From a virus: a stretch of 35,184 bases of DNA. The stretch's first letter is position 1, and each line of letters opens with the position of its first letter. The stretch lies in IMG/VR virus record IMGVR_UViG_3300027860_000002; one strand, 5' to 3'. The position numbers and the translations under genes were made by a program. Shown one piece after another: positions 1-35,184 of the stretch. The notes below the pieces were generated by a model that saw only the letters and a program-made list of their open reading frames with translations, ran no database searches and was not told the origin of the DNA.

Positions 1-127
1 ATTCAGCATTACCCGCAAATGCGCCTACAAATGTGTTATCTGTTGCAGAAGCCGTAGTCAGGGTAAGATTACCGGCATTTGAGCCTAAAAAGGTATTTCT
101 AGTCCCATAGTTAGAGATAAATGGCTG
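1..127. repeat. Terminal overlap identical to 35058-35184; the contig closes into a circle of about 35,057 bp
   Basis: Both ends read attcagcattacccgcaaatgcg...gttagagataaatggctg over 127 nt with no mismatch seen. Confidence 0.9.
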
Positions 128-3723: not shown

Positions 3724-3916
3724 CAGATGTACCTCCACTGGTTTGTTCTTGTCTTTTGAGCAATTCTGCCTGCTGCTTGTGCATTTCAACGAGATTCACG
3801 AGGAACTCATGGGCAACATCATATACTTCACCATGTGATGCACCATAAGGCATCGTAAACGTATAGATTCTTTCTTCTTTGGTTATCTTTAGTTCAATAG
3901 TCAGTCTTTGTTCCAT
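3710..3916 (-). CDS. Hypothetical protein (68 aa)
   Basis: ORF track. Sits between fibre genes and overlaps the next start by 14 nt. Confidence 0.45.
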   Translation of the reverse strand: MEQRLTIELKITKEERIYTFTMPYGASHGEVYDVAHEFLVNLVEMHKQQAELLKRQEQTSGGTSDGGQ

Positions 3917-12425: not shown

Positions 12426-12430
12426 CATTA

Positions 12431-13504
12431 TCAATAAAACGTGAAGGTATTACCAGCCATCCAGAACATAGAGTCACCAATACCAGTGTTAGTATTGAAG
12501 CCTCCAGCAGGACCTGCGTTTTGAGCGCCGGCTCCACGCAGACCACCACCAAGCTGCATACCTATAAAAGCAGTATTTAACGTTGCATCACTGAGGATGT
12601 TAACGTTATTAAGTAATGCTATAGAGGTATATTCACCCATCGGTGTGGTTTGAGCAGGAGAGAACGGAACTAAAGCAGCAGGTGGATAGTACGTAGGACC
12701 AGCAAATGCCCAAGGGCCATATGCTGATGTATCTATATTTACTGTAATGGTAAAGAGTGTTGTAGGTTCATTACCGGTTACAATAACAGGAGCGTTACCC
12801 ACAGCAACAATAGTTGTTTGCATACCATCAAGAAGCGCATAATTACCCCATACTTGAGTGCCACCAGGGAAGTTAAGACGTATTTCTTGGCCAACTTGGT
12901 ATCCACTATTAACAGAAGTATAGATAACAGGTGTCACTTCAGCTGACATATAGGTAATAGCTCGATGGTTTGGATACCATTGAGCTACAGGAATAACTCT
13001 ATAACTACCCGCGTTAGAAGCTACAGTACCTACGGCGTTAACGCCACCAAGTGTAAAGCTTACTCCAGGGTTAACCGCAGTAACTTGGAAATCGATACCT
13101 GCAAATTGCGGCTGGTTATTGAGGTTTGCCAATCGCACAAACTGTCCTACGAGAGGAGTAGTCGCTGTCAGAACAACTGGAGGATTAGCAGCGCTAAACC
13201 CAGTAATAGCATATGACACACCAGGAGTAGCAACAGATGTATTAATAACAGTAAACCCGTTGCCAGCAGCAAGTTCACCAACAGTAACCGAGTTATTAGC
13301 TAAACCACCATTCTTAGTCCAGACAACACCCTGGGAAATAGGCATGCCTACTTGCCAGAAGAAATCATAACCCAAAACGGCAGCGGCTTGCGTAAGCGCT
13401 GTTTGATTAAGCACTCTCATCCAACTTACACCCGATGGTATAGGTATGATGATATTAGCACCTGTTGAAGTAAATTGACCTTGTAGAGTAATAGTATTAT
13501 TCAT
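12431..13504 (-). CDS. Abundant virion structural protein (357 aa), possible decoration or second capsid-associated protein
   Basis: Starts 10 nt after the capsid stop codon and is followed by a hairpin. Confidence 0.5.
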   Translation of the reverse strand: MNNTITLQGQFTSTGANIIIPIPSGVSWMRVLNQTALTQAAAVLGYDFFWQVGMPISQGVVWTKNGGLANNSVTVGELAAGNGFTVINTSVATPGVSYAITGFSAANPPVVLTATTPLVGQFVRLANLNNQPQFAGIDFQVTAVNPGVSFTLGGVNAVGTVASNAGSYRVIPVAQWYPNHRAITYMSAEVTPVIYTSVNSGYQVGQEIRLNFPGGTQVWGNYALLDGMQTTIVAVGNAPVIVTGNEPTTLFTITVNIDTSAYGPWAFAGPTYYPPAALVPFSPAQTTPMGEYTSIALLNNVNILSDATLNTAFIGMQLGGGLRGAGAQNAGPAGGFNTNTGIGDSMFWMAGNTFTFY

Positions 13505-14226: not shown

Positions 14227-14464
14227 ACTCACTTCGTAAAGCATTCATAGGTGATGGATAGTTATTCTTATGAATAAATCCAGCAACTGCATCTAAGTTA
14301 CCAGTAAGTTGAGTACTGCAAAGAGCAAAGTACGCATCACGTACAGGAGCTGTACCGAAACGGTCTTCGCCCTGAATGTTATCTAATACAGTATACGCAT
14401 TGTTATCAAGCAATGTTCGCACTACAGTATCAACATCAGGTCGTGTTATTTCAGTAGGATTGTC
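14227..14464 (-). CDS. Major capsid protein, exon 2
   Basis: Encodes DNPTEITRPDVDTVVRTLLDNNAYTV...PSPMNALRSE plus one base. It is bounded by the intron 1 terminal G (14465) and the intron 2 5' splice site. Confidence 0.8.
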
Positions 14465-14486
14465 CATTTTCTATTACTTTATTGAC

Positions 14487-15404
14487 TTATATCGAATAAT
14501 ATGCCATTATTTTATCATGATTAAAAAAATTAAAAAATTTAACTATGCATACATAGCTGGATATATCGACGGAGACGGATGTTTTGACATTGGAAAACAG
14601 TATGTTAAAAATCGTCTTAGTCCACGATATCCTGCTGGTATAATAGTATCTTCTACTAATGATAAAATAATAAATTGGTTTAATAATACATTTGGAGGAT
14701 CGGTTCGCTCTTATAAAAAGAGAACTTCTAATCAAAAGCCTATGTATTACTTTATTTTGAGAAAAAATAAAAGTATGTATTTGATTCCAAAAATTCTTCC
14801 TTTTTTGGTTGAAAAACGAGAAGAAGCATGTTTGTTTTTGGAATTTTGTAAACAAACAAACCCTATGAATAAAGAACATCTTATTAATAAGCTTAAAATA
14901 ACCAAAAGTGTGGGCAATCTTGTTACAAAGTATCATAAAGAAGAGTTTGAGCGACTTAAAAGTACAATCAATCCTACGATATATGATTTTGCATATTTGG
15001 CTGGATTTATAGATGCAGAATGTTCGTTGAATATTCAAAAATATAAGCCAAAAAACAAACCAAATTATGTTTATAAGATTCTGTTGCAATGCAACAATAC
15101 TAAAGCACCCGCCTTTAAATGGCTTATTGAAAGATTTGGAGGACAAATACATTTTATTGATCGCAGAAACCATGGAAAAGCAAGAAAGAATCAATTGACC
15201 TGGCGTTTGTCGGGAAAAGCTCTTTCTCATATTCTGCCAAATATTTATCAATTTCTCAGATATAAAAAACCAGTTTGTAAGCAATTGATTAAATTTTATG
15301 AAACAACTCTTAAGAATGGTGGTGCGCGACATACGGATCAATTTAGATCTGAATATGACCGCACTATAAAAATCAGAGAAGAGATTGTAACTAAAGTTCA
15401 TCAA
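14487..15404 (-). CDS. 305-codon intron-sense ORF, codon-aligned antisense to the LAGLIDADG gene. Coding status unknown
   Basis: ORF track. It uses the same triplet phase as the plus-strand gene and is open only because that gene has no TTA, CTA or TCA codons. The F/I/S/K-rich product has no motif I recognise. Confidence 0.2.
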   Translation of the reverse strand: MMNFSYNLFSDFYSAVIFRSKLIRMSRTTILKSCFIKFNQLLTNWFFISEKLINIWQNMRKSFSRQTPGQLILSCFSMVSAINKMYLSSKSFNKPFKGGCFSIVALQQNLINIIWFVFWLIFLNIQRTFCIYKSSQICKIIYRRIDCTFKSLKLFFMILCNKIAHTFGYFKLINKMFFIHRVCLFTKFQKQTCFFSFFNQKRKNFWNQIHTFIFSQNKVIHRLLIRSSLFIRANRSSKCIIKPIYYFIISRRYYYTSRISWTKTIFNILFSNVKTSVSVDISSYVCIVKFFNFFNHDKIMAYYSI

Positions 15405-15434
15405 TTAAACTCCAAGGGCATAAAATCAATATAA
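14517..15434 (+). CDS. Double-motif LAGLIDADG homing endonuclease (305 aa), antisense to intron 1 and the capsid gene
   Basis: Two motifs: YIAGYIDGDGCF and YLAGFIDAECSL. The first ATG is at 14517 (MIKKIKKF). A possible TTGACT-17-CATTAT promoter lies at 14482-14510. Confidence 0.85.
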   Translation: MIKKIKKFNYAYIAGYIDGDGCFDIGKQYVKNRLSPRYPAGIIVSSTNDKIINWFNNTFGGSVRSYKKRTSNQKPMYYFILRKNKSMYLIPKILPFLVEKREEACLFLEFCKQTNPMNKEHLINKLKITKSVGNLVTKYHKEEFERLKSTINPTIYDFAYLAGFIDAECSLNIQKYKPKNKPNYVYKILLQCNNTKAPAFKWLIERFGGQIHFIDRRNHGKARKNQLTWRLSGKALSHILPNIYQFLRYKKPVCKQLIKFYETTLKNGGARHTDQFRSEYDRTIKIREEIVTKVHQLNSKGIKSI

Positions 15435-15621
15435 GCGGGTGATCATTTCTGTCACCTCTTTATGTTTCCATAAAGATTCGACTATCACATCCTCTTTCGA
15501 GGTCTTTCTGTTTAGTCTGTCACGCTGCACAGCAAATACTTGCTTGCGCCTTGTTGTCTCCAGCATTACCTGGTAAGAGTTCCAAGTCCATTAAGAAAGA
15601 TTTTACAACGGCAACAATTCT

Positions 15622-16053
15622 ACCGTTGACACCAGCGGTGCAATTAATAAATGCGGCAGTTGCAGCGAGCATGTCTCTTGTGAGAGTATCCTCTGTCTGT
15701 CTCAAACTTACACCCAAACGTTCCGCTGCCTGATTAAGCACTGGATCTTGGTTTTGGAGCGTAACTTGCTCATTTAATATTATATATTGACCATAAAACG
15801 AAACGGTTGCATCGATATCGATAGCAGTTAGGTTCACTGAAGGAGGCGTCACGCCAGTATTTCCCAAAGGAACTAGTGCTGTTGGTAGGGGATTATATCT
15901 ACGCATTCTCAGCGTAACACCACCATTCCTAGGCATGACCTTAAGTTCAGCTGGTATCTTATGGATCATGTTTGGAACAGGAACCGATAAGAGTTTGTAG
16001 CTAAAACTTTGTTGGACAGGCGCCGGAAGAGTGGTTGTAGTTGTAATAGGCAT
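15622..16053 (-). CDS. Major capsid protein, exon 1 (144 codons)
   Basis: MPITTTTTLPAPVQQSFSYKLL...PRNGGVTLRMRRYNPLP...FINCTAGVNG looks like an HK97-fold podovirus capsid N-terminus. Past the splice site the frame reads on into intron sequence until the stop at 15520. Confidence 0.8.
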
Positions 16054-23940: not shown

Positions 23941-24014
23941 TGGTAACCTGTAAAGGAATCGAACCTTTTCCTCTGGGCTGAAAACCCAGGGTTCTACCAA
24001 TAAACTAACAGGTC
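23941..24014 (-). tRNA. tRNA with anticodon UUC (Glu), CCA encoded
   Basis: Hand-folded cloverleaf: acceptor GACCTGT/ACAGGTT, D arm GTTT-ATTGGTA-GAAC, anticodon stem CTGGG/CCCAG with loop TTTTCAG, T arm AAAGG-TTCGATT-CCTTT. Confidence 0.75.
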
Positions 24015-24109: not shown

Positions 24110-24207
24110 AAACCCGAGTTGGATTCGAACCAACGTCCCGATCGCCCGAAATTACAACTAATAATCTCGTATACCTGGCAACCACTCTACCGCTGAGCTA
24201 TCGGGTA
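24110..24207 (-). tRNA. Atypical 98-nt tRNA-like gene with an extended anticodon arm
   Basis: Canonical TA-GCTC-AGCGGTA-GAGT D arm, GTTGG-TTCGAAT-CCAAC T arm and 6/7-bp acceptor stem. Between them lies GTTGCC-AGGTATA-[CGAGATTA-TTAGTTG-TAATTTCG]-GGCGAT instead of a 17-nt anticodon arm. No CCA is encoded. Confidence 0.55.
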
Positions 24208-24264
24208 TTTTTTCCGTCTATACCATTCCCAGACTACTAAAAAAGAATGGTATTATGCAAGAAG

Positions 24265-24298
24265 CAAAAAAGGCCCCGTAGTATACACTAGCAGGGCC
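24265..24298 (-). terminator. Rho-independent terminator after the RHH gene
   Basis: Minus strand reads GGCCC-loop-GGGCC followed by TTTTTTGC. Confidence 0.6.
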
Positions 24299-24314
24299 TC
24301 AACTATAAGGAAAT

Positions 24315-24452
24315 CTAGTTACCGTTGTTGATGTACTCAGTGAGAGCGGCTACGATTATTTCTTTTTGCGTTATCCTTTGTTCAAACGCCATTCTCCTCA
24401 AGATTTCGTAGAGCTCTTGAGGTAAAAAAACACTAATTCTTATTTCATCCAC
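24315..24452 (-). CDS. Ribbon-helix-helix protein (45 aa)
   Basis: GGAGG, 6 nt, then GTG. Product VDEIRISVFLPQELYEILRRMAFEQRITQKEIIVAALTEYINNGN has the classic beta-alpha-alpha layout. Below the ORF-track cutoff. Confidence 0.55.
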   Translation of the reverse strand: MDEIRISVFLPQELYEILRRMAFEQRITQKEIIVAALTEYINNGN

Positions 24453-24484
24453 TCTGATCCTCCATTATAACTAAACATGATCTT

Positions 24485-24580
24485 TGAGCTTTTTTTATAA
24501 ACTGAGTGAGCATTATAATACTATTTCTATGTATGAAATTTTTACGGTAAGCCAACATGAGCAAAAAAAGCTTTATGAGT
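24485..24580 (+). repeat. TGAG(C/T) motif cluster, 5 copies in plus orientation
   Basis: TGAGC at 24485, 24507 and 24558. TGAGT at 24503 and 24576. Confidence 0.7.
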
Positions 24581-24713
24581 TTTATAGAGACATTCATATT
24601 CCAATATAAGTCTTTGATCTATTGTTTTTTATGTAATTGCTCGTAAGATCCTAGAATATTTTATGATCTTGTACCATCCATATGAACTATATGCTAAAAT
24701 ACTATGATTTTTT

Positions 24714-24799
24714 ACTCATAGATAACAAGTCTCAATTAACTCAGAAGACGAACTCATGGTATAGACTGTATAAATTCAAGAACTCATGCTCATAGCTCA
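24714..24799 (-). repeat. TGAG(C/T/A) motif cluster, 7 copies in minus orientation, spanning the tnpB stop codon
   Basis: On the plus strand: ACTCA at 24714, 24739, 24752 and 24782; TCTCA at 24730; GCTCA at 24788 and 24795. CATGAGTTC occurs twice on the minus strand. Confidence 0.7.
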
Positions 24800-25899
24800 T
24801 AATGACTAGTCAACAAATTTCGGACGCGACTCGCATCGCTCTCGTGGCTCGCTCCAAGCCCGGCAATGAGTGTGTTTTTCGCCGTATTTACGTCGCGATC
24901 ATGAAGAGTTCCACAACTCACACAAACCCATTCCCTTACCTTCAGACAAGTCAATGATGCAGGACCCGAAGGTGATCTACATACCGAACATGTCACGGTG
25001 GAAATCATTGCATTATCTGTACCGGTTTTGCTTGCAAATTCTATATATTTTCTCTCATTATTCTCACTTTTATAACACATCATAAGGCGTAGCTGGTAGT
25101 TAGCAGAATCAGCAACCAAAAGGCCTAGATTACGAGCTCTTTGCTTGAGATCATCTTTATTAACTACTATCGTATCATACTGTTCTACTATTTTGCGAGA
25201 CAGCTTATGATTAGCATCCTTACGGCAATTGGCTATACGCTCATGGAGTCGAGCTACTAACTTTTTATTACCTCCACGCTGTGCCTGGGCCAATCTGTTA
25301 AGGTGTTTTTGTAACTGTGCTTCGCGCTGAATAATATCGCCATTTGATAATGCCATGCGACCATCAACGCTGAGCTGTATACCGATTAATTCACAGCCCT
25401 TATGAGCAATTCTGTTTGATTGAGCATCTATAAATAAACAAAGATAAAAACCCGAAGCACGCTTCACTAAACGAGCACACTTTACCTTACCTATAGGTAT
25501 TCGCTGCTTATGGTATTTTAATTTGCCCAAATAAGGCAATTCTACATAGGTGCGATTGATATGAGCTTCTTTTATTGGATCCGGAAATGAAATAGAAGTA
25601 AGTCTATTTCTTTGCCCCTTTAAGCGCGGCGCTCGAGCTAGCTTTTTAAAACAACGCTGCCATGTGGTATGTGCATCTTTGAGCATCGCTTGAATAGTGT
25701 GTGATGGCATACCTAATCGCTTATTATGACCAGCAAGAATATTAATAAACTCAAACTTATTGTAATAAATATGATCCGCAGCATCCTTCTCTATCTTCTT
25801 TATCGCCCAGTTCCATATGGACGTAAGAATAGGAAACCACTCATTGATCATAGTTTCTTGTTCGCGCTTAAGTTTAAGTTTTAACTGTACTTGTATCAA
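24790..25899 (-). CDS. tnpB: TnpB-like (IS200/IS605 OrfB-type) RuvC/zinc-finger protein, 369 aa, with a non-canonical RuvC-I motif
   Basis: N-terminal KLKLKREQETMINEWFPILTSIWNWA. C-terminal CSVC...CVSCGTLHDRDVNTAKN. The expected G-x-D-x-G motif reads GIQLS (Gln175, codon 25375-25377). TTG start. No tnpA nearby. Confidence 0.8.
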   Translation of the reverse strand: MIQVQLKLKLKREQETMINEWFPILTSIWNWAIKKIEKDAADHIYYNKFEFINILAGHNKRLGMPSHTIQAMLKDAHTTWQRCFKKLARAPRLKGQRNRLTSISFPDPIKEAHINRTYVELPYLGKLKYHKQRIPIGKVKCARLVKRASGFYLCLFIDAQSNRIAHKGCELIGIQLSVDGRMALSNGDIIQREAQLQKHLNRLAQAQRGGNKKLVARLHERIANCRKDANHKLSRKIVEQYDTIVVNKDDLKQRARNLGLLVADSANYQLRLMMCYKSENNERKYIEFASKTGTDNAMISTVTCSVCRSPSGPASLTCLKVREWVCVSCGTLHDRDVNTAKNTLIAGLGASHESDASRVRNLLTSHYEL

Positions 25900-25905
25900 A
25901 GAGGT

Positions 25906-26108
25906 TGAGCCTTTATATAAGAATAGGTGAGCCTGTGTTTACAAATAGTATGAGCCTTTATCGCGATTCTATGAGTATCTAGTATGACAATAATTCATTA
26001 AGCTATGAGCCTGTATGCTGAATTAGTATATTGAGCAACTATTTACAAAGGTTATGAGCTTTTCACTCTCATTGAGCCATCGTATATCTATAAGGTAGCT
26101 ATATGAGC
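25906..26108 (+). repeat. Array of 9 direct TGAGC motifs (one is TGAGT) at 18-34 bp spacing, between tnpB and TerL
   Basis: Motif starts at 25906, 25928, 25951, 25972, 26006, 26032, 26055, 26073 and 26104. Four copies extend to TGAGCCT(T/G)T. Confidence 0.85.
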
Positions 26109-26151
26109 AATGTTGGCATAAATATATCACGGCATATTGGCATGTCAATTA

Positions 26152-27507
26152 TTATTGTCTAAAAAATCCAGTAAACTGCTGATCTCCATAAGTAGCTTCA
26201 TGATATCTGCGCTCTAAATCTTCGGCTGATGTACCTTTTTGTGCGTGGCGTAATCCCATAGATAAATAACGAAAACTATCGGCAAAATGACTATATTGAT
26301 CGTGCACTGGTGAGCCCTTGTACACATTGTGCTTAGTATCGAACTCCTGTCTATAGTTCTCTAATGCTCGCACAAGTGGTCTTGTTGTAGCCTCATTAAA
26401 CCAACAACGTGGCAGTACACTACGAACCACTTCAATGCCATCAACGATGGGTATATTATCAACAACCGTGAAATTAACCCCTAGATCATATGCCTTAGCC
26501 CAACGGGTCATGCCTGATCCAAACTCCATTTGCTTCATATCGTGAGGAGCAAAATGCTTAGCATACGTATATGGCTGTGACTTTATAAAGTTGATGTAAT
26601 GCTCCAGTCCTTCTTTGTTCTTTTCGTAGACATTTAAAATACGAACCGTCTGGCCAATAACCTGGAACATAATAATCGAGGTACTGTCCCGTACACCTAT
26701 ATCCCAACTTGAATATACCGGATGGCTTGGCTCCCAAGGCACATCAGTTATCTGATTATTAAGCCGCAATCTATCTATATACTTCATATAGTATGAGCCC
26801 TGTATACCCATATCAAACGATGTATAGTACTCCTGCTTGGCAAGGTCCTCTGAGATTTCTCCTAGGGCTATTTCTTTTTGTATATCAAAGAGGGAAATGT
26901 GCTTAGTGCCTTCCACCGTAAGATGCGAACAAAACCACTCAGGAGACTCTTTGGCTACTTGATACATGGTGTAGAGATGGTTATGCCCGCGTGGTGTTGA
27001 TATAAACAAAGCCCAGGCATCGGCAGCTGTAAGAGCAGGCCTCAAGTATGAATAAGCCCGTGGATCTTGCAGGGCATACTCACTAAAAATAATTCCATTT
27101 GCACTTATTCCCATAAGCCTATCATATGAATCACTGCCAGCAAACTGGATTTGTGATCCGTTAATGAGCGTGATTTTCATCTCAGCTATGTTCTTTTTCT
27201 CTATAAGCTCTGCAGGTATATAATCCAAAAACTGCATACCATCAATAGTCATGCCTTCGAACACCGTTCTTCGGGCTTGTACGCCTGTTGGAAGCAAATA
27301 AAAATAATTTCCTATTTGTCTTAATGCTGCTCTGAGCATTATATTTAGGGCGCAAATGTCCTTGCCTGCTCTACGTGGCCAAATTGCCAATAATCGCTTC
27401 TTTTTATCTCTCTCTAATGCATTAATAAGAGGTATCTGAAACTCTCTTGGCTTAAATCTATCTAACTTAATACGCGCTTCTACATTCTCCGCAACATAGC
27501 CGCTTAT
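26152..27507 (-). CDS. terL: Terminase large subunit. Start codon unresolved
   Basis: Walker-A-like WPRRAGKD. The nuclease half contains ...SSWDIGVRDSTSIIMFQ.... The frame is open and terminase-like for 39 codons upstream of the first canonical start (TTG at 27390). Confidence 0.8.
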   Translation of the reverse strand: MSGYVAENVEARIKLDRFKPREFQIPLINALERDKKKRLLAIWPRRAGKDICALNIMLRAALRQIGNYFYLLPTGVQARRTVFEGMTIDGMQFLDYIPAELIEKKNIAEMKITLINGSQIQFAGSDSYDRLMGISANGIIFSEYALQDPRAYSYLRPALTAADAWALFISTPRGHNHLYTMYQVAKESPEWFCSHLTVEGTKHISLFDIQKEIALGEISEDLAKQEYYTSFDMGIQGSYYMKYIDRLRLNNQITDVPWEPSHPVYSSWDIGVRDSTSIIMFQVIGQTVRILNVYEKNKEGLEHYINFIKSQPYTYAKHFAPHDMKQMEFGSGMTRWAKAYDLGVNFTVVDNIPIVDGIEVVRSVLPRCWFNEATTRPLVRALENYRQEFDTKHNVYKGSPVHDQYSHFADSFRYLSMGLRHAQKGTSAEDLERRYHEATYGDQQFTGFFRQ

Positions 27508-27809
27508 TTAGCTTCCTTAGTATATCCCATTAAGTCGGGATGTACCTTTGATAACATTTCTAAATGAGCACATTCAACACATAGTCCTTTATTTTTCATA
27601 GATTCAAAATAACATTCTTCGTCGTCATTCATATATAGATTGCATTGCGAACATCTTTTAAATCGTGAAGGCTGTCCAGGCGTGTAGTAGTTATATCGAA
27701 TATTATTATCGTTATTTTTTTTCATTTTATTTAGATTCCCTATTAAGTACCGATTCTTGAAAGATATACCAACATATACCAGGATGATCTGTGCAATCAC
27801 ATGGTTCAA
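27504..27809 (-). CDS. Cys-rich zinc-ribbon-like protein. Start uncertain (TTG 27809 or ATG 27725)
   Basis: CSQCNLYMNDDEECYFESMKNKGLCVEC. Confidence 0.5.
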   Translation of the reverse strand: MNHVIAQIILVYVGISFKNRYLIGNLNKMKKNNDNNIRYNYYTPGQPSRFKRCSQCNLYMNDDEECYFESMKNKGLCVECAHLEMLSKVHPDLMGYTKEAK

Positions 27810-27988
27810 TCATCTGATATTCCAATAAAAACTTCATTGAGACCACTCCTTTTTGATGATAAGGTATAATAACAACGAAAACATCTTTCACTGCAAACGG
27901 GAAACAATAACTTTTCTGTAGATGGCATAGTTATTAATAACCCATATGACATTTCATAGCACATCAAACAATGCTTCATTTCTTCCAT
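27806..27988 (-). CDS. Cys-rich small protein (60 aa)
   Basis: HCLMCYEM...PVCSERCFRCY. TTGA-type overlap with the next gene. Confidence 0.5.
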   Translation of the reverse strand: MEEMKHCLMCYEMSYGLLITMPSTEKLLFPVCSERCFRCYYTLSSKRSGLNEVFIGISDD

Positions 27989-33597: not shown

Positions 33598-35184
33598 CTA
33601 AAGGTTACATTCTTTGCAAGTTGTCTCGTGGTTACGCTTGCGGGGCATGCGGCATGATTCAAGATCGGATATGCGTGCATTGAGCTTCTGTATCTCATTA
33701 AGCAATAATACCGAAATATCATGGTACTTAACTGATTCAGGCGCACCATCTTCATTATATACTACAAGGCGCGGCATCGCTTCTTCTACTTCTTCAGCAA
33801 TAAGACCATATTGCATGCGCTTCGTCTCATCTGCCTTGTAGTTAAACACTACAGGACGCAACTTATAGATAGCATCACTGGCATCATCCATATCGTCTAT
33901 ATTTTCTTTATAGCGAAGCGATGACGATACGGTACCAAGTTGACCAGCACTATCAACTAAGACTGCAATAGCATCGGCATTGCCCGTAGTAACGCCACGT
34001 ATGCCCGCTATAACACACTTGGCTTGGGTGCCTTGTACACCTATGCGGGTAGTAGTATTTTCACCAACTGTTCCTGTTACTGATGCACCAATAAGAATAT
34101 TATTGCTTTCAGCGCCAGTATAAGCACTACCTGCTGTATATCCCAGAAATGTATTATTTGCACCAGTAATGAGGCTATAACCCACTTGATGGCCAAATCC
34201 AGTATTGTGAACACCAGTAGTCAAATTATAAAAACCAAAGTTAGAAACCATGGTAGTTTGAGTAGATGTCGTAAGATTAGTTGCAGCAAAATTACCCATA
34301 AGAAGATTTTGCCCACCAATATGTCCTGCCGCAATACCCGTGTTATGACCAACGATAATATTATTATTAGATGTTCCCACTTGCCCCGTGTTAAGGGATG
34401 AGCCTGAATTGTGTCCAATAATCAATGCATCAAGTAATGGACCTGCATTTTGTGCTGCATTATTACCAATCGCCATAGACACACTAAGATTATTAGAATT
34501 CTGGAAAGCGTTATTACCAATAGCCATGACAACGGAAGATTGGTTTGCTGCCCCTGCATTAAATCCTACAAAAAGATTATTATTGGCACCATTTTGTGCA
34601 TATCCAGCTAGATTTCCAATTCCTATATTATTTACACCAACAGTTTCAGAGTAAAAAGTATCAATTCCCACACCAACACCAGTTCCAGAAGTAAGGGCCT
34701 GGAAAGAACCTTTGCCAAGAGCAGTATTACTATATGAAGTTACATTTTGAAGTGATTGTGCACCAACAGCAGTATTGCCCGATACCCCAGCTGCGGTAGC
34801 CGCATTTTGCATAGCTCTAAAGCCAATACAAACATCGTTATTAGCGTTAGTATTTCCATACGCAGCATTATAACCAATTGCAACTGATGAAGAAATTGCA
34901 GTCGCATTGCCATAAGCATTCCAACCAATTGCTACATTGGCACCTCCGACCCCCGTAAATGCTCCAAGGGCATCATAACCCAAGGCTGTATTACCTGAAG
35001 ATGTAGTATTTAATTGAAATGCACTTGATCCGACAGCAACATTTTGGTTACCGGTTGATTCAGCATTACCCGCAAATGCGCCTACAAATGTGTTATCTGT
35101 TGCAGAAGCCGTAGTCAGGGTAAGATTACCGGCATTTGAGCCTAAAAAGGTATTTCTAGTCCCATAGTTAGAGATAAATGGCTG
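33598..35184 (-). CDS. Tail fibre/tailspike, 3' part, with a C-terminal intramolecular chaperone (peptidase S74-type) domain. Continues at 595-1
   Basis: C-terminal SSLRYKENIDDMDDASDAIYKLRPVVFNYKADETKRMQYGLIAEEVEEAMPRLVVYNEDGAPESVKYHDISVLLLNEIQKLNARISDLE. The ORF-track Met at 34983 is an internal TTG, and the frame stays open to the window end. Confidence 0.85.
   Translation of the reverse strand, partial: QPFISNYGTRNTFLGSNAGNLTLTTASATDNTFVGAFAGNAESTGNQNVAVGSSAFQLNTTSSGNTALGYDALGAFTGVGGANVAIGWNAYGNATAISSSVAIGYNAAYGNTNANNDVCIGFRAMQNAATAAGVSGNTAVGAQSLQNVTSYSNTALGKGSFQALTSGTGVGVGIDTFYSETVGVNNIGIGNLAGYAQNGANNNLFVGFNAGAANQSSVVMAIGNNAFQNSNNLSVSMAIGNNAAQNAGPLLDALIIGHNSGSSLNTGQVGTSNNNIIVGHNTGIAAGHIGGQNLLMGNFAATNLTTSTQTTMVSNFGFYNLTTGVHNTGFGHQVGYSLITGANNTFLGYTAGSAYTGAESNNILIGASVTGTVGENTTTRIGVQGTQAKCVIAGIRGVTTGNADAIAVLVDSAGQLGTVSSSLRYKENIDDMDDASDAIYKLRPVVFNYKADETKRMQYGLIAEEVEEAMPRLVVYNEDGAPESVKYHDISVLLLNEIQKLNARISDLESCRMPRKRNHETTCKECNL
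35058..35184. repeat. Second copy of the 127-nt terminal overlap
   Basis: Identical to 1-127. Confidence 0.9.

Follow-up and report, generated by a model that had tools for sequence, protein, structure and literature searches.

A phage tnpB with glutamine at the RuvC-I aspartate, immobilized and under purifying selection: a candidate TldR-like DNA-binding protein

Does a tnpB gene that an uncultured phage carries among its packaging and morphogenesis genes still encode a nuclease, or has it become a protein that binds DNA without cutting it? The question is raised by the IMG/VR virus record IMGVR_UViG_3300027860_000002, a stretch of 35,184 nucleotides that is referred to as the window throughout. 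An earlier inspection of its letters (the sequence-only reading) had noted a TnpB-like gene with Gln at the first catalytic Asp of the RuvC domain and had likened it to the TldR class of nuclease-dead, RNA-guided repressors. In the analysis presented here, an Asp-to-Gln replacement was found at the catalytic column, fixed in a phage clade in which the gene is immobilized, and the gene is kept by purifying selection without mobility. That it encodes a new, independently arisen TldR-like protein, a DNA binder rather than a nuclease, is given an even chance.

The open reading frame (ORF) at 24790-25899 on the minus strand, which encodes 369 amino acids from a TTG start (ATG in the related haplotype L003), is a full-length TnpB, as had been read from its architecture. 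It matched the NCBIfam model NF040570 (guided_TnpB, RNA-guided endonuclease TnpB family) over residues 5-344 with 135.7 bits against a cut-off of 100, and it exceeded the cut-offs of the Pfam domains OrfB_IS605 (PF01385) and Cas12f1-like_TNB (PF07282). An AlphaFold2 model made from 79 input sequences (pLDDT 86.6, pTM 0.77) was superposed over its full length in Foldseek on ISFba1 TnpB (8IAZ, TM 0.76) and on ISDra2 TnpB (8H1J, TM 0.74), the latter being the comparison that the sequence-only reading had called for, and the complete WED/REC/RuvC/TNB fold was present. The zinc finger and the HDRDVN motif reported earlier were both recovered; the four cysteines of the former (C304, C307, C326, and C329) are intact and conserved in an alignment of 126 sequences, which comprises 118 cellular homologues and eight phage-clade sequences and underlies all column counts given below. 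About 1,300 homologues exist, and the closest cellular relatives of the phage protein are merely 53-56% identical to it.

The RuvC-I motif, where the family reads D-P-G, is replaced by Q175-L176-S177 (25369-25377, minus strand, with the Gln175 codon at 25375-25377). When the protein was compared with PDB sequences by phmmer, IGIQLS was aligned to GVDLG of ISDra2-type proteins, so that Q175 was placed on D191, N247 on E278, and D336 (in HDRDVN) on D361. The RuvC-I column held Asp in 118 of 118 cellular sequences (IGIDPG) and Gln in all eight sequences of the phage clade (IGIQLS), which bore out the substitution noted earlier, and the two following residues are P-G in the cellular relatives and L-S in the phages. 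Among 108 positions conserved in at least 95% of the cellular relatives, 97 were retained by the phage clade; six of the 11 altered positions are in or beside RuvC motifs (D175Q, P176L, G177S, S247N, S261L, and H267N), and on this alignment the losses are clustered at the RuvC pocket and its surroundings. In ISDra2 and Gst TnpB, cleavage is abolished when the equivalent Asp is mutated, and the Q175 protein would be expected, from its residues, to have lost cleavage. A D196A mutant serves as the dead control in the work on TldRs (10.1101/2023.11.30.569447).

The second catalytic motif had also been counted as defective, with no Glu and a two-residue insertion, and this argument failed, because the Asp of KDD aligns with an invariant Asp of the family. 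Within N247-K248-D249 (25153-25161, minus strand), N247 occupies the canonical Glu column, which is Ser in 118 of the 126 sequences, including an insertion sequence (IS) with tnpA that is present in six 99%-identical copies. In contrast to that column, E220, D249, and E287 are invariant in all 126 sequences; D336 is retained as well, and E287 lies within strand 284-289 of the AlphaFold2 model. The missing RuvC-II Glu is thus a family trait rather than a defect. A conserved acid at the catalytic position, which the sequence-only reading had named as evidence against itself, was therefore found for motif II (D249) and not for motif I, and the acidic triad of the subfamily (D175, a relocated acid at D249 or E287, and D336) is broken at position 175 only. 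An additional Asp, D179 of 'SVDG', occurs four residues past Q175; it is specific to the phage clade, with Lys in most relatives, and in the model it is found at the apex of the beta1-beta2 hairpin (residues 177-181) instead of the end of strand 170-176.

The cellular relatives provided the reference for what the phage gene has kept and lost. A metagenome-assembled genome (MAG) of Waddliaceae (CAVYRW010000004.1) contains six copies of a 1577-bp IS (L033, L035, L037, L043, L073, and L077), 99.2-99.6% identical to each other and encoding a Y1 tnpA together with the same type of tnpB, which supports activity of the relatives. TGAAC forms the left flank of at least seven independent elements of the cellular family and was hence taken as the family transposon-adjacent motif (TAM); the relatives also carry a GGTTCAA end. 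From the HDRD codons to the right end (RE), 22 cellular relatives share a common layout: hairpin A, which covaries, comes first, and it is followed by hairpin B, which is variable and lies around the stop codon, by GUC(C/A)GGAAU, by a covarying hairpin at the terminus (CCCCnGGCUUUAGCCnGGGG), and by the end AGGUUCAA, beyond which the flanks diverge. Since the CCCCnGGCUUUAGCCnGGGG hairpin is also present in the left end (LE), it was identified as the TnpA-binding palindrome. In one cellular locus, L038, the right-end terminus is tandemly duplicated (GGGGAGGCTCAG GGGAGGCTCAA) at the 3' end of tnpB, so that duplication of the end motif does occur in this IS family. Chlamydiae, a phylum reported to be poor in TnpB (PMC10691335), are the source of several of the cellular sequences closest to the phage gene.

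None of this mobility apparatus was found with the phage gene. The first and last 127 nt of the window (1-127 and 35058-35184) are identical, which indicates a circular, complete assembly of about 35,057 bp, and in this complete genome of about 35 kb there is neither a tnpA nor a second tnpB. The lack of an accompanying tnpA had thus been noted correctly, and identical IS copies, which would have marked an ordinary active element, were absent from the phage genome. No LE hairpin or TGAAC could be recognized upstream of the phage tnpB. A string at about 25965-25975 (GAATCGCGA) bears a weak likeness to the Waddliaceae left end, but it was absent from the other relatives and was set aside as an LE remnant.

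The location between terminase and tRNA/portal genes was also as described earlier: the large terminase gene terL (26152-27390) lies on one side, and a gene for a 45-aa ribbon-helix-helix (RHH) protein, a tRNA-Glu gene, and the portal gene lie on the other. The same terL-portal slot is occupied in synteny in three full haplotypes with about 83-88% nucleotide identity, and it is shared by at least six contigs from independent samples. Contigs that bear tnpB include L003/L006 (IMG/VR 3300047335_000135), L004 (3300014493_000473), L090/L093 (QGNH01001233.1), and L091 and L092 (Logan assemblies), and L001 carries a truncated copy. In more distant phage relatives, the gap between terL and portal varies from 90 bp to 3.4 kb and is without tnpB. 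Members of the 90% cluster and a metagenome scan yielded only duplicates of the same three haplotypes, and a megablast search of the locus against GenBank phages gave no match.

Comparisons among the haplotypes revealed that the gene is constrained. The ratio of non-synonymous to synonymous divergence (dN/dS) for tnpB was 0.10 between the window and L003 (dS 0.52; 91 synonymous differences at 241 sites against 45 non-synonymous differences at 866 sites) and 0.12 between the window and L004 (dS 0.38), and no frameshifts or stop codons were found in six contigs. Given dN/dS of 0.10-0.12 at a dS of about 0.4-0.5, Q175 predates the haplotype split and the gene has been constrained since. The dN/dS of terL and portal was 0.02, and the dS of tnpB (0.52) was below that of terL (1.39) and portal (0.93). 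The GC content of tnpB (40.5%) is in line with that of the genome (40.6%), and its GC3 matches as well, a sign of long residence.

Part of this constraint appears to act on RNA. The sequence-only reading had expected an ωRNA scaffold in the roughly 200 nt after the stop codon (24600-24790). A covariance model (R1) built from the 22 cellular relatives instead placed a scaffold homologue mostly within the 3' end of the ORF, at 24790-24915 on the minus strand, with 76 bits (E=7e-16) in the window and 76-80 bits across the haplotypes; the scaffold is inside the gene because the phage ORF is extended through the terminal-hairpin region. The terminal hairpin of the relatives is not kept in the phages. 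Hairpins A (about 24843-24863) and B (about 24824-24841) and the GUCCGAAAU element that follows hairpin B are retained in the phages, and after them comes a degenerate terminal stem. In hairpin B of the L004 haplotype, GCGA/UCGC is changed to GCGC/GCGC, a compensatory replacement that costs two amino-acid changes (D355A and S357K). Synonymous divergence drops from 0.28-0.30 over the first 300 codons to 0.11 over the last 69 (p=0.002-0.004), and GC content is 49% in the last 210 nt against 38% in the remainder of tnpB. Together, the retained hairpins, the compensatory change, the lower synonymous divergence, and the higher 3' GC content support selection at the RNA level. No Rfam ωRNA family matched in the window, where only tRNAs were found. 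A long hairpin between the ORF end and the post-stop block, as proposed by RNAalifold, was no more stable than shuffled sequences and was discarded.

Beyond the stop codon, alignments of the three haplotypes showed conserved blocks at 24732-24789 (minus strand), namely GCATGAGTTC at 24780-24789 and TCTATACCATGAGTTCGTCTT..GAGTTAATTGA at 24732-24765, with a variable stretch of about 14 nt between GCATGAGTTC and TCTATACCATGAGTTCGTCTT. These blocks have no stable fold (z=+1.4, -0.2, and +0.5), and they hold both candidate junctions between scaffold and guide. At the stop codon (24790), where the covariance model ends, the guide would be GCAUGAGUUC followed by variable sequence. The other candidate follows GAGUUCAA at about 24770-24778, 20 nt past the stop; it is the best sequence match to the family end and reads GAGUUCUUGAA in the window haplotype. 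Three copies of the repeated CATGAGTTC reported earlier were found, two of them at 24750-24758 and 24780-24788 and one at 3803-3811. The AAGATC...GATCTT hairpin reported with it proved to be specific to the window haplotype, and it overlaps a promoter-like site.

Candidate targets in the phage genome were searched for with TGAAC, TGAGC, TTCAA, and CTCAT as TAMs; outside the locus, this gave no match of at least 10/12 other than hits at the level of chance. The longest exact k-mers that 24440-24800 has in common with the remaining genome are 11-12 nt, the chance level. In L019, a related phage without tnpB, TTGAAC at about 12430-12452 on the minus strand (equal to L103 4227-4248) is followed by 15 of 17 matches to the L003 sequence immediately after GAGTTCAA. 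This site is unique in IMG/VR and lies inside a 92-aa ORF that has no homologue in the window phage; it was rejected as an ancestral empty site or a competitor target on these grounds, and the match is probably due to chance.

The flanks of tnpB carry a second set of features. Directly past the terL stop, a near-consensus sigma-70 promoter, TTGACA-16-(TG)TATATT, is located at 26121-26148 (minus strand) and conserved in all haplotypes, and it is presumed from its sequence to be the tnpB promoter. The interval from this promoter to the tnpB start holds about nine iteron-like units at 25906-26113 (minus strand), which have the core (A)AA(G/T)GCTCA(T/C/A) and a spacing of 18-31 nt, mostly 21-26. 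On the other side of tnpB, a conserved promoter-like block, TTCATA-17-TAAAAT (24658-24686, minus strand), lies upstream of the RHH gene, and the leader of that gene contains a second array of four GCTCA/ACTCA cores (24484-24585, minus strand); other haplotypes have 4-6 cores in unalignable surroundings. GCTCA units are 15-25-fold enriched on both flanks in all three haplotypes, where the flanks are otherwise unalignable, and such arrays were absent in the relatives without tnpB and in two other viral tnpB loci. Three to four inverted copies (ATGAGC, ATGAGT) occur near the 3' end of tnpB at 24750-24800. The GCTCA core resembles the right-end motif GGYTCAA of the family, and its other strand resembles the TAM with one change (TGAGC vs TGAAC).

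The RHH gene (24315-24452, minus strand) encodes an Arc/CopG-like protein, which matched Arc-like/CopG-like entries of PHROG and the Pfam domain RHH_1 (21.9 bits, cut-off 20.5), and in a tblastn comparison it was 98-100% identical across the haplotypes, with at most one residue differing. After the gene come a hairpin rich in GC and a run of T (about 24262-24300). No RHH gene was found with the cellular relatives of the phage tnpB, while L007, which has neither tnpB nor the arrays, has an RHH-like gene ahead of its portal gene. RHH (Arc) proteins are described as repressors of IS605 element promoters (10.64898/2026.09.24.754181). An ORF listed at 24445-24597 (orf50) occurs in the window haplotype only and was dismissed as a gene.

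How far these observations carry the proposal of a TldR-like binder depends on which of its parts is considered. The replaced Asp, its fixation, the immobilization, and the purifying selection stood up, whereas the RuvC-II argument, the predicted ωRNA site, and the proposed hairpin did not, and no guide/target pair was found. By analogy with TldRs, RNA-guided DNA binding and repression would be expected of the protein. On this reading, the gene descends from an IS200/IS605 tnpB of a RuvC-II-rearranged branch and was immobilized and domesticated in the phage; it has lost the RuvC-I carboxylate (DPG to QLS) and several pocket residues, with continued selection on the remaining protein and most of the ωRNA scaffold. 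The protein would be expressed from its own strong predicted promoter, bind an RNA encoded in and just past its own 3' end, and occupy, without cutting, a DNA site beside a TGAAC-type TAM, most likely in the host, and the outcome may be transcriptional repression or a roadblock.

Several results weigh against this proposal. Only a single triad residue is lost, D336, the zinc finger, and the relocated acids being intact, and no other part of the protein is as well conserved between haplotypes as the RuvC region. The terminal, guide-adjacent stem reaches -4.6 to -5.8 kcal/mol in the phages, with a structure that differs in each haplotype, compared with a covarying stem of -11 to -16.5 kcal/mol in the relatives; the 95-nt region of the terminal hairpin folds no better than shuffled sequences, and with three haplotypes the covariation evidence is thin. 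The scaffold/guide junction is ambiguous, as the model ends at the stop and sequence similarity favors GAGTTCAA 20 nt further on, which is disrupted in the window. The search for matches beyond the scaffold end, which the sequence-only reading had recommended, detected no TGAAC-flanked match of at least 10/12 to any post-stop offset in the window genome, and post-stop repeats of at least 13 nt were absent elsewhere in the window. A guide/target pair was found neither in the phage genome nor in its relatives nor in IMG/VR beyond the one probable chance hit. The decayed guide-adjacent stem and the lack of an identified target weaken the case for RNA-guided binding.

The same points give some room to other explanations, of which a guide-free role has a modest chance of being right. 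The locus would then be a regulatory cassette (promoter, GCTCA iterons, tnpB, promoter, GCTCA iterons, RHH) in which the RHH protein, or the TnpB derivative through TAM-like contacts, binds the iterons, and the ωRNA remnants would serve as a protein-binding or stabilizing RNA. This would account for the enrichment of GCTCA on both sides in all haplotypes and its absence from other loci, for the conservation of the core amid unalignable sequence, for the near-identity of the RHH protein, and for the decay of the guide-adjacent stem, and it has a precedent in the Arc repression of IS605 promoters (10.64898/2026.09.24.754181). However, hairpins A and B are still under RNA-level selection, the RHH protein has no direct link to the GCTCA motif, the cellular tnpB relatives lack an RHH gene, and L007 has an RHH-like gene before its portal gene even though it is without tnpB and iterons. 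It is rather unlikely that the protein still cuts DNA through an active site that has been rearranged once more, in which D179 or D250 would substitute for D175; it would then serve the phage as an RNA-guided nuclease for homing or competition. Relocation of the RuvC-II acid is already tolerated in the family, as seen in the alignment and reported for other branches (PMC10691335), the new D179 lies close to Q175, and E220, D249, E287, D336, the zinc finger, and the conservation of the RuvC region would all fit a working enzyme. Against an active site of this kind, the hairpin-tip position of D179 in the AlphaFold2 model is unfavorable, the P and G that follow the Asp and are critical to the structure have been lost, the conserved S261 and H267 are altered, the equivalent Asp mutation is known to kill cleavage (the D196A dead control), and no target resembling the donor joint was found at a credible level in the relatives without tnpB.

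Two further accounts were given little credence. That the gene is an ordinary IS remnant in decay, its conservation reflecting only a recent divergence of the phages, is very improbable: the lack of tnpA, the lost LE and RE hairpins, the lost catalytic Asp, and a tnpB dS below that of terL and portal would suit such a remnant, but its dN/dS of 0.10, the uninterrupted frames, the 97 of 108 conserved positions retained, the conserved near-consensus promoter, and a composition fully ameliorated to the phage would not. It is likewise far-fetched, though conceivable, that the GCTCA units are a rudimentary guide array and that this TnpB is part-way to a split, multi-guide, nuclease-dead system. In each unit, the 6-7 nt with which the ancestral ωRNA ended (GGYUCAA-like) would be repeated and followed by about 12-18 nt, and the 2-3 AUGAGC copies at the degenerate scaffold end, which complement the unit core, would pair in trans with unit transcripts in a tracr-like manner.

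Other features of the phage genomes were recorded beside the tnpB locus. The portal protein is at most 25% identical to that of any cultured phage, so that the host could not be deduced from it, and no integrase was found among the ORFs tested in the phage. The ENA contig L001 (from 585-1325 onward) shows the terL end, the iterons, and tnpB to about codon 243, followed by fragmented GC-rich bacterial genes; it was rejected as a phage-host junction and is probably a chimeric, error-rich contig. About 500 bp of the window (27482-27980), between a RuvC-like resolvase gene and terL, are missing from the L003/L006 haplotype, and this stretch contains a 101-aa ORF with CxxC pairs (27504-27809). The terL frame itself runs upstream past its listed TTG start without another ATG, GTG, or TTG. 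Adjoining the tRNA-Glu gene (23941-24014), a tRNA-like sequence at 24110-24207 (minus strand; Rfam tRNA 38.7 bits, no ARAGORN call) has a 31-nt insertion in its anticodon region and could be an intron-bearing or degenerate tRNA. Within the block of structural genes, a LAGLIDADG homing-endonuclease ORF on the opposite strand neighbors a 177-aa fragment whose match covers a capsid profile only in part (14376-15434, plus strand, and 15520-16053, minus strand), and the capsid gene or its vicinity may have received a mobile insertion here. In L028 (4335-6530), a homologue of the terminase large subunit is divided into two blocks (residues 1-197 and 190-404) about 960 bp apart, which suggests an intron or intein-like insertion.

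Among known systems, the active IS200/IS605 TnpB is exemplified by the 1577-bp Waddliaceae element, which shares with the phage gene 53-56% protein identity, the same SKD type of RuvC-II, the ωRNA hairpin A, the GUCCGGAAU element, and a ...GTTCAA-like end. Such relatives have D175-P-G, tnpA, LE and RE hairpins, the TGAAC TAM, and multiple identical copies, none of which is found in the phage. In the RuvC-II-rearranged (RIIr) TnpB branches, a Glu in strand beta5 replaces that of beta4, and these branches are deemed active (Altae-Tran et al. 2023, PMC10691335). Similarly, the family of the phage gene lacks the canonical RuvC-II Glu and has the invariant E287 in strand beta5, in a RuvX-like manner (PMC10691335); the match is to RIIr branches in general, and the phage clade differs by the additional loss of the RuvC-I Asp. 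IS605 elements with Arc (RHH) genes (10.64898/2026.09.24.754181) also have a small RHH gene by tnpB and repeated motifs near the promoter, whereas the RHH gene of the phage is found beyond the ancestral right end, downstream of the ωRNA, and has no counterpart in the cellular relatives.

The closest likeness in kind is to the TldRs, which have one to three of the DED residues mutated, are in some cases encoded by phages (10.1101/2023.11.30.569447), and include the fliC_P-associated proteins of Enterobacter prophages and the oppF-associated proteins of Enterococcus (Wiegand et al., 10.1101/2023.11.30.569447). As in TldRs, a RuvC active-site substitution is conserved, with the Q175 clade nested among intact TnpBs, and the gene is immobile, without TnpA, under selection, phage-borne, and equipped with a scaffold RNA at its 3' end. 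In contrast to TldRs, it is without an identified guide and target, has a decayed guide-adjacent stem, and is flanked by iteron-like arrays. Rather than beside fliC or oppF, it is placed between terL and portal, in a phage whose tested ORFs include no integrase, and its protein has the full length, an intact zinc finger, and an intact RuvC-III, with changes in the RuvC-I pocket alone. TldRs demonstrate that transposon nucleases can turn into RNA-guided transcription factors, and they comprise few clades of known biology. If it is guide-dependent, the phage protein would extend RNA-guided repression to phage takeover or to conflict between phages and would be a compact natural dead TnpB. Because the TnpA-binding hairpin has partly decayed, the locus also provides a natural test of the ωRNA parts that TnpB itself needs. 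Next to the TldRs, the phage clade stands apart by its independent origin from a RuvC-II-rearranged branch, its full-length protein, and its place, in an uncultured phage, within the region for packaging and morphogenesis.

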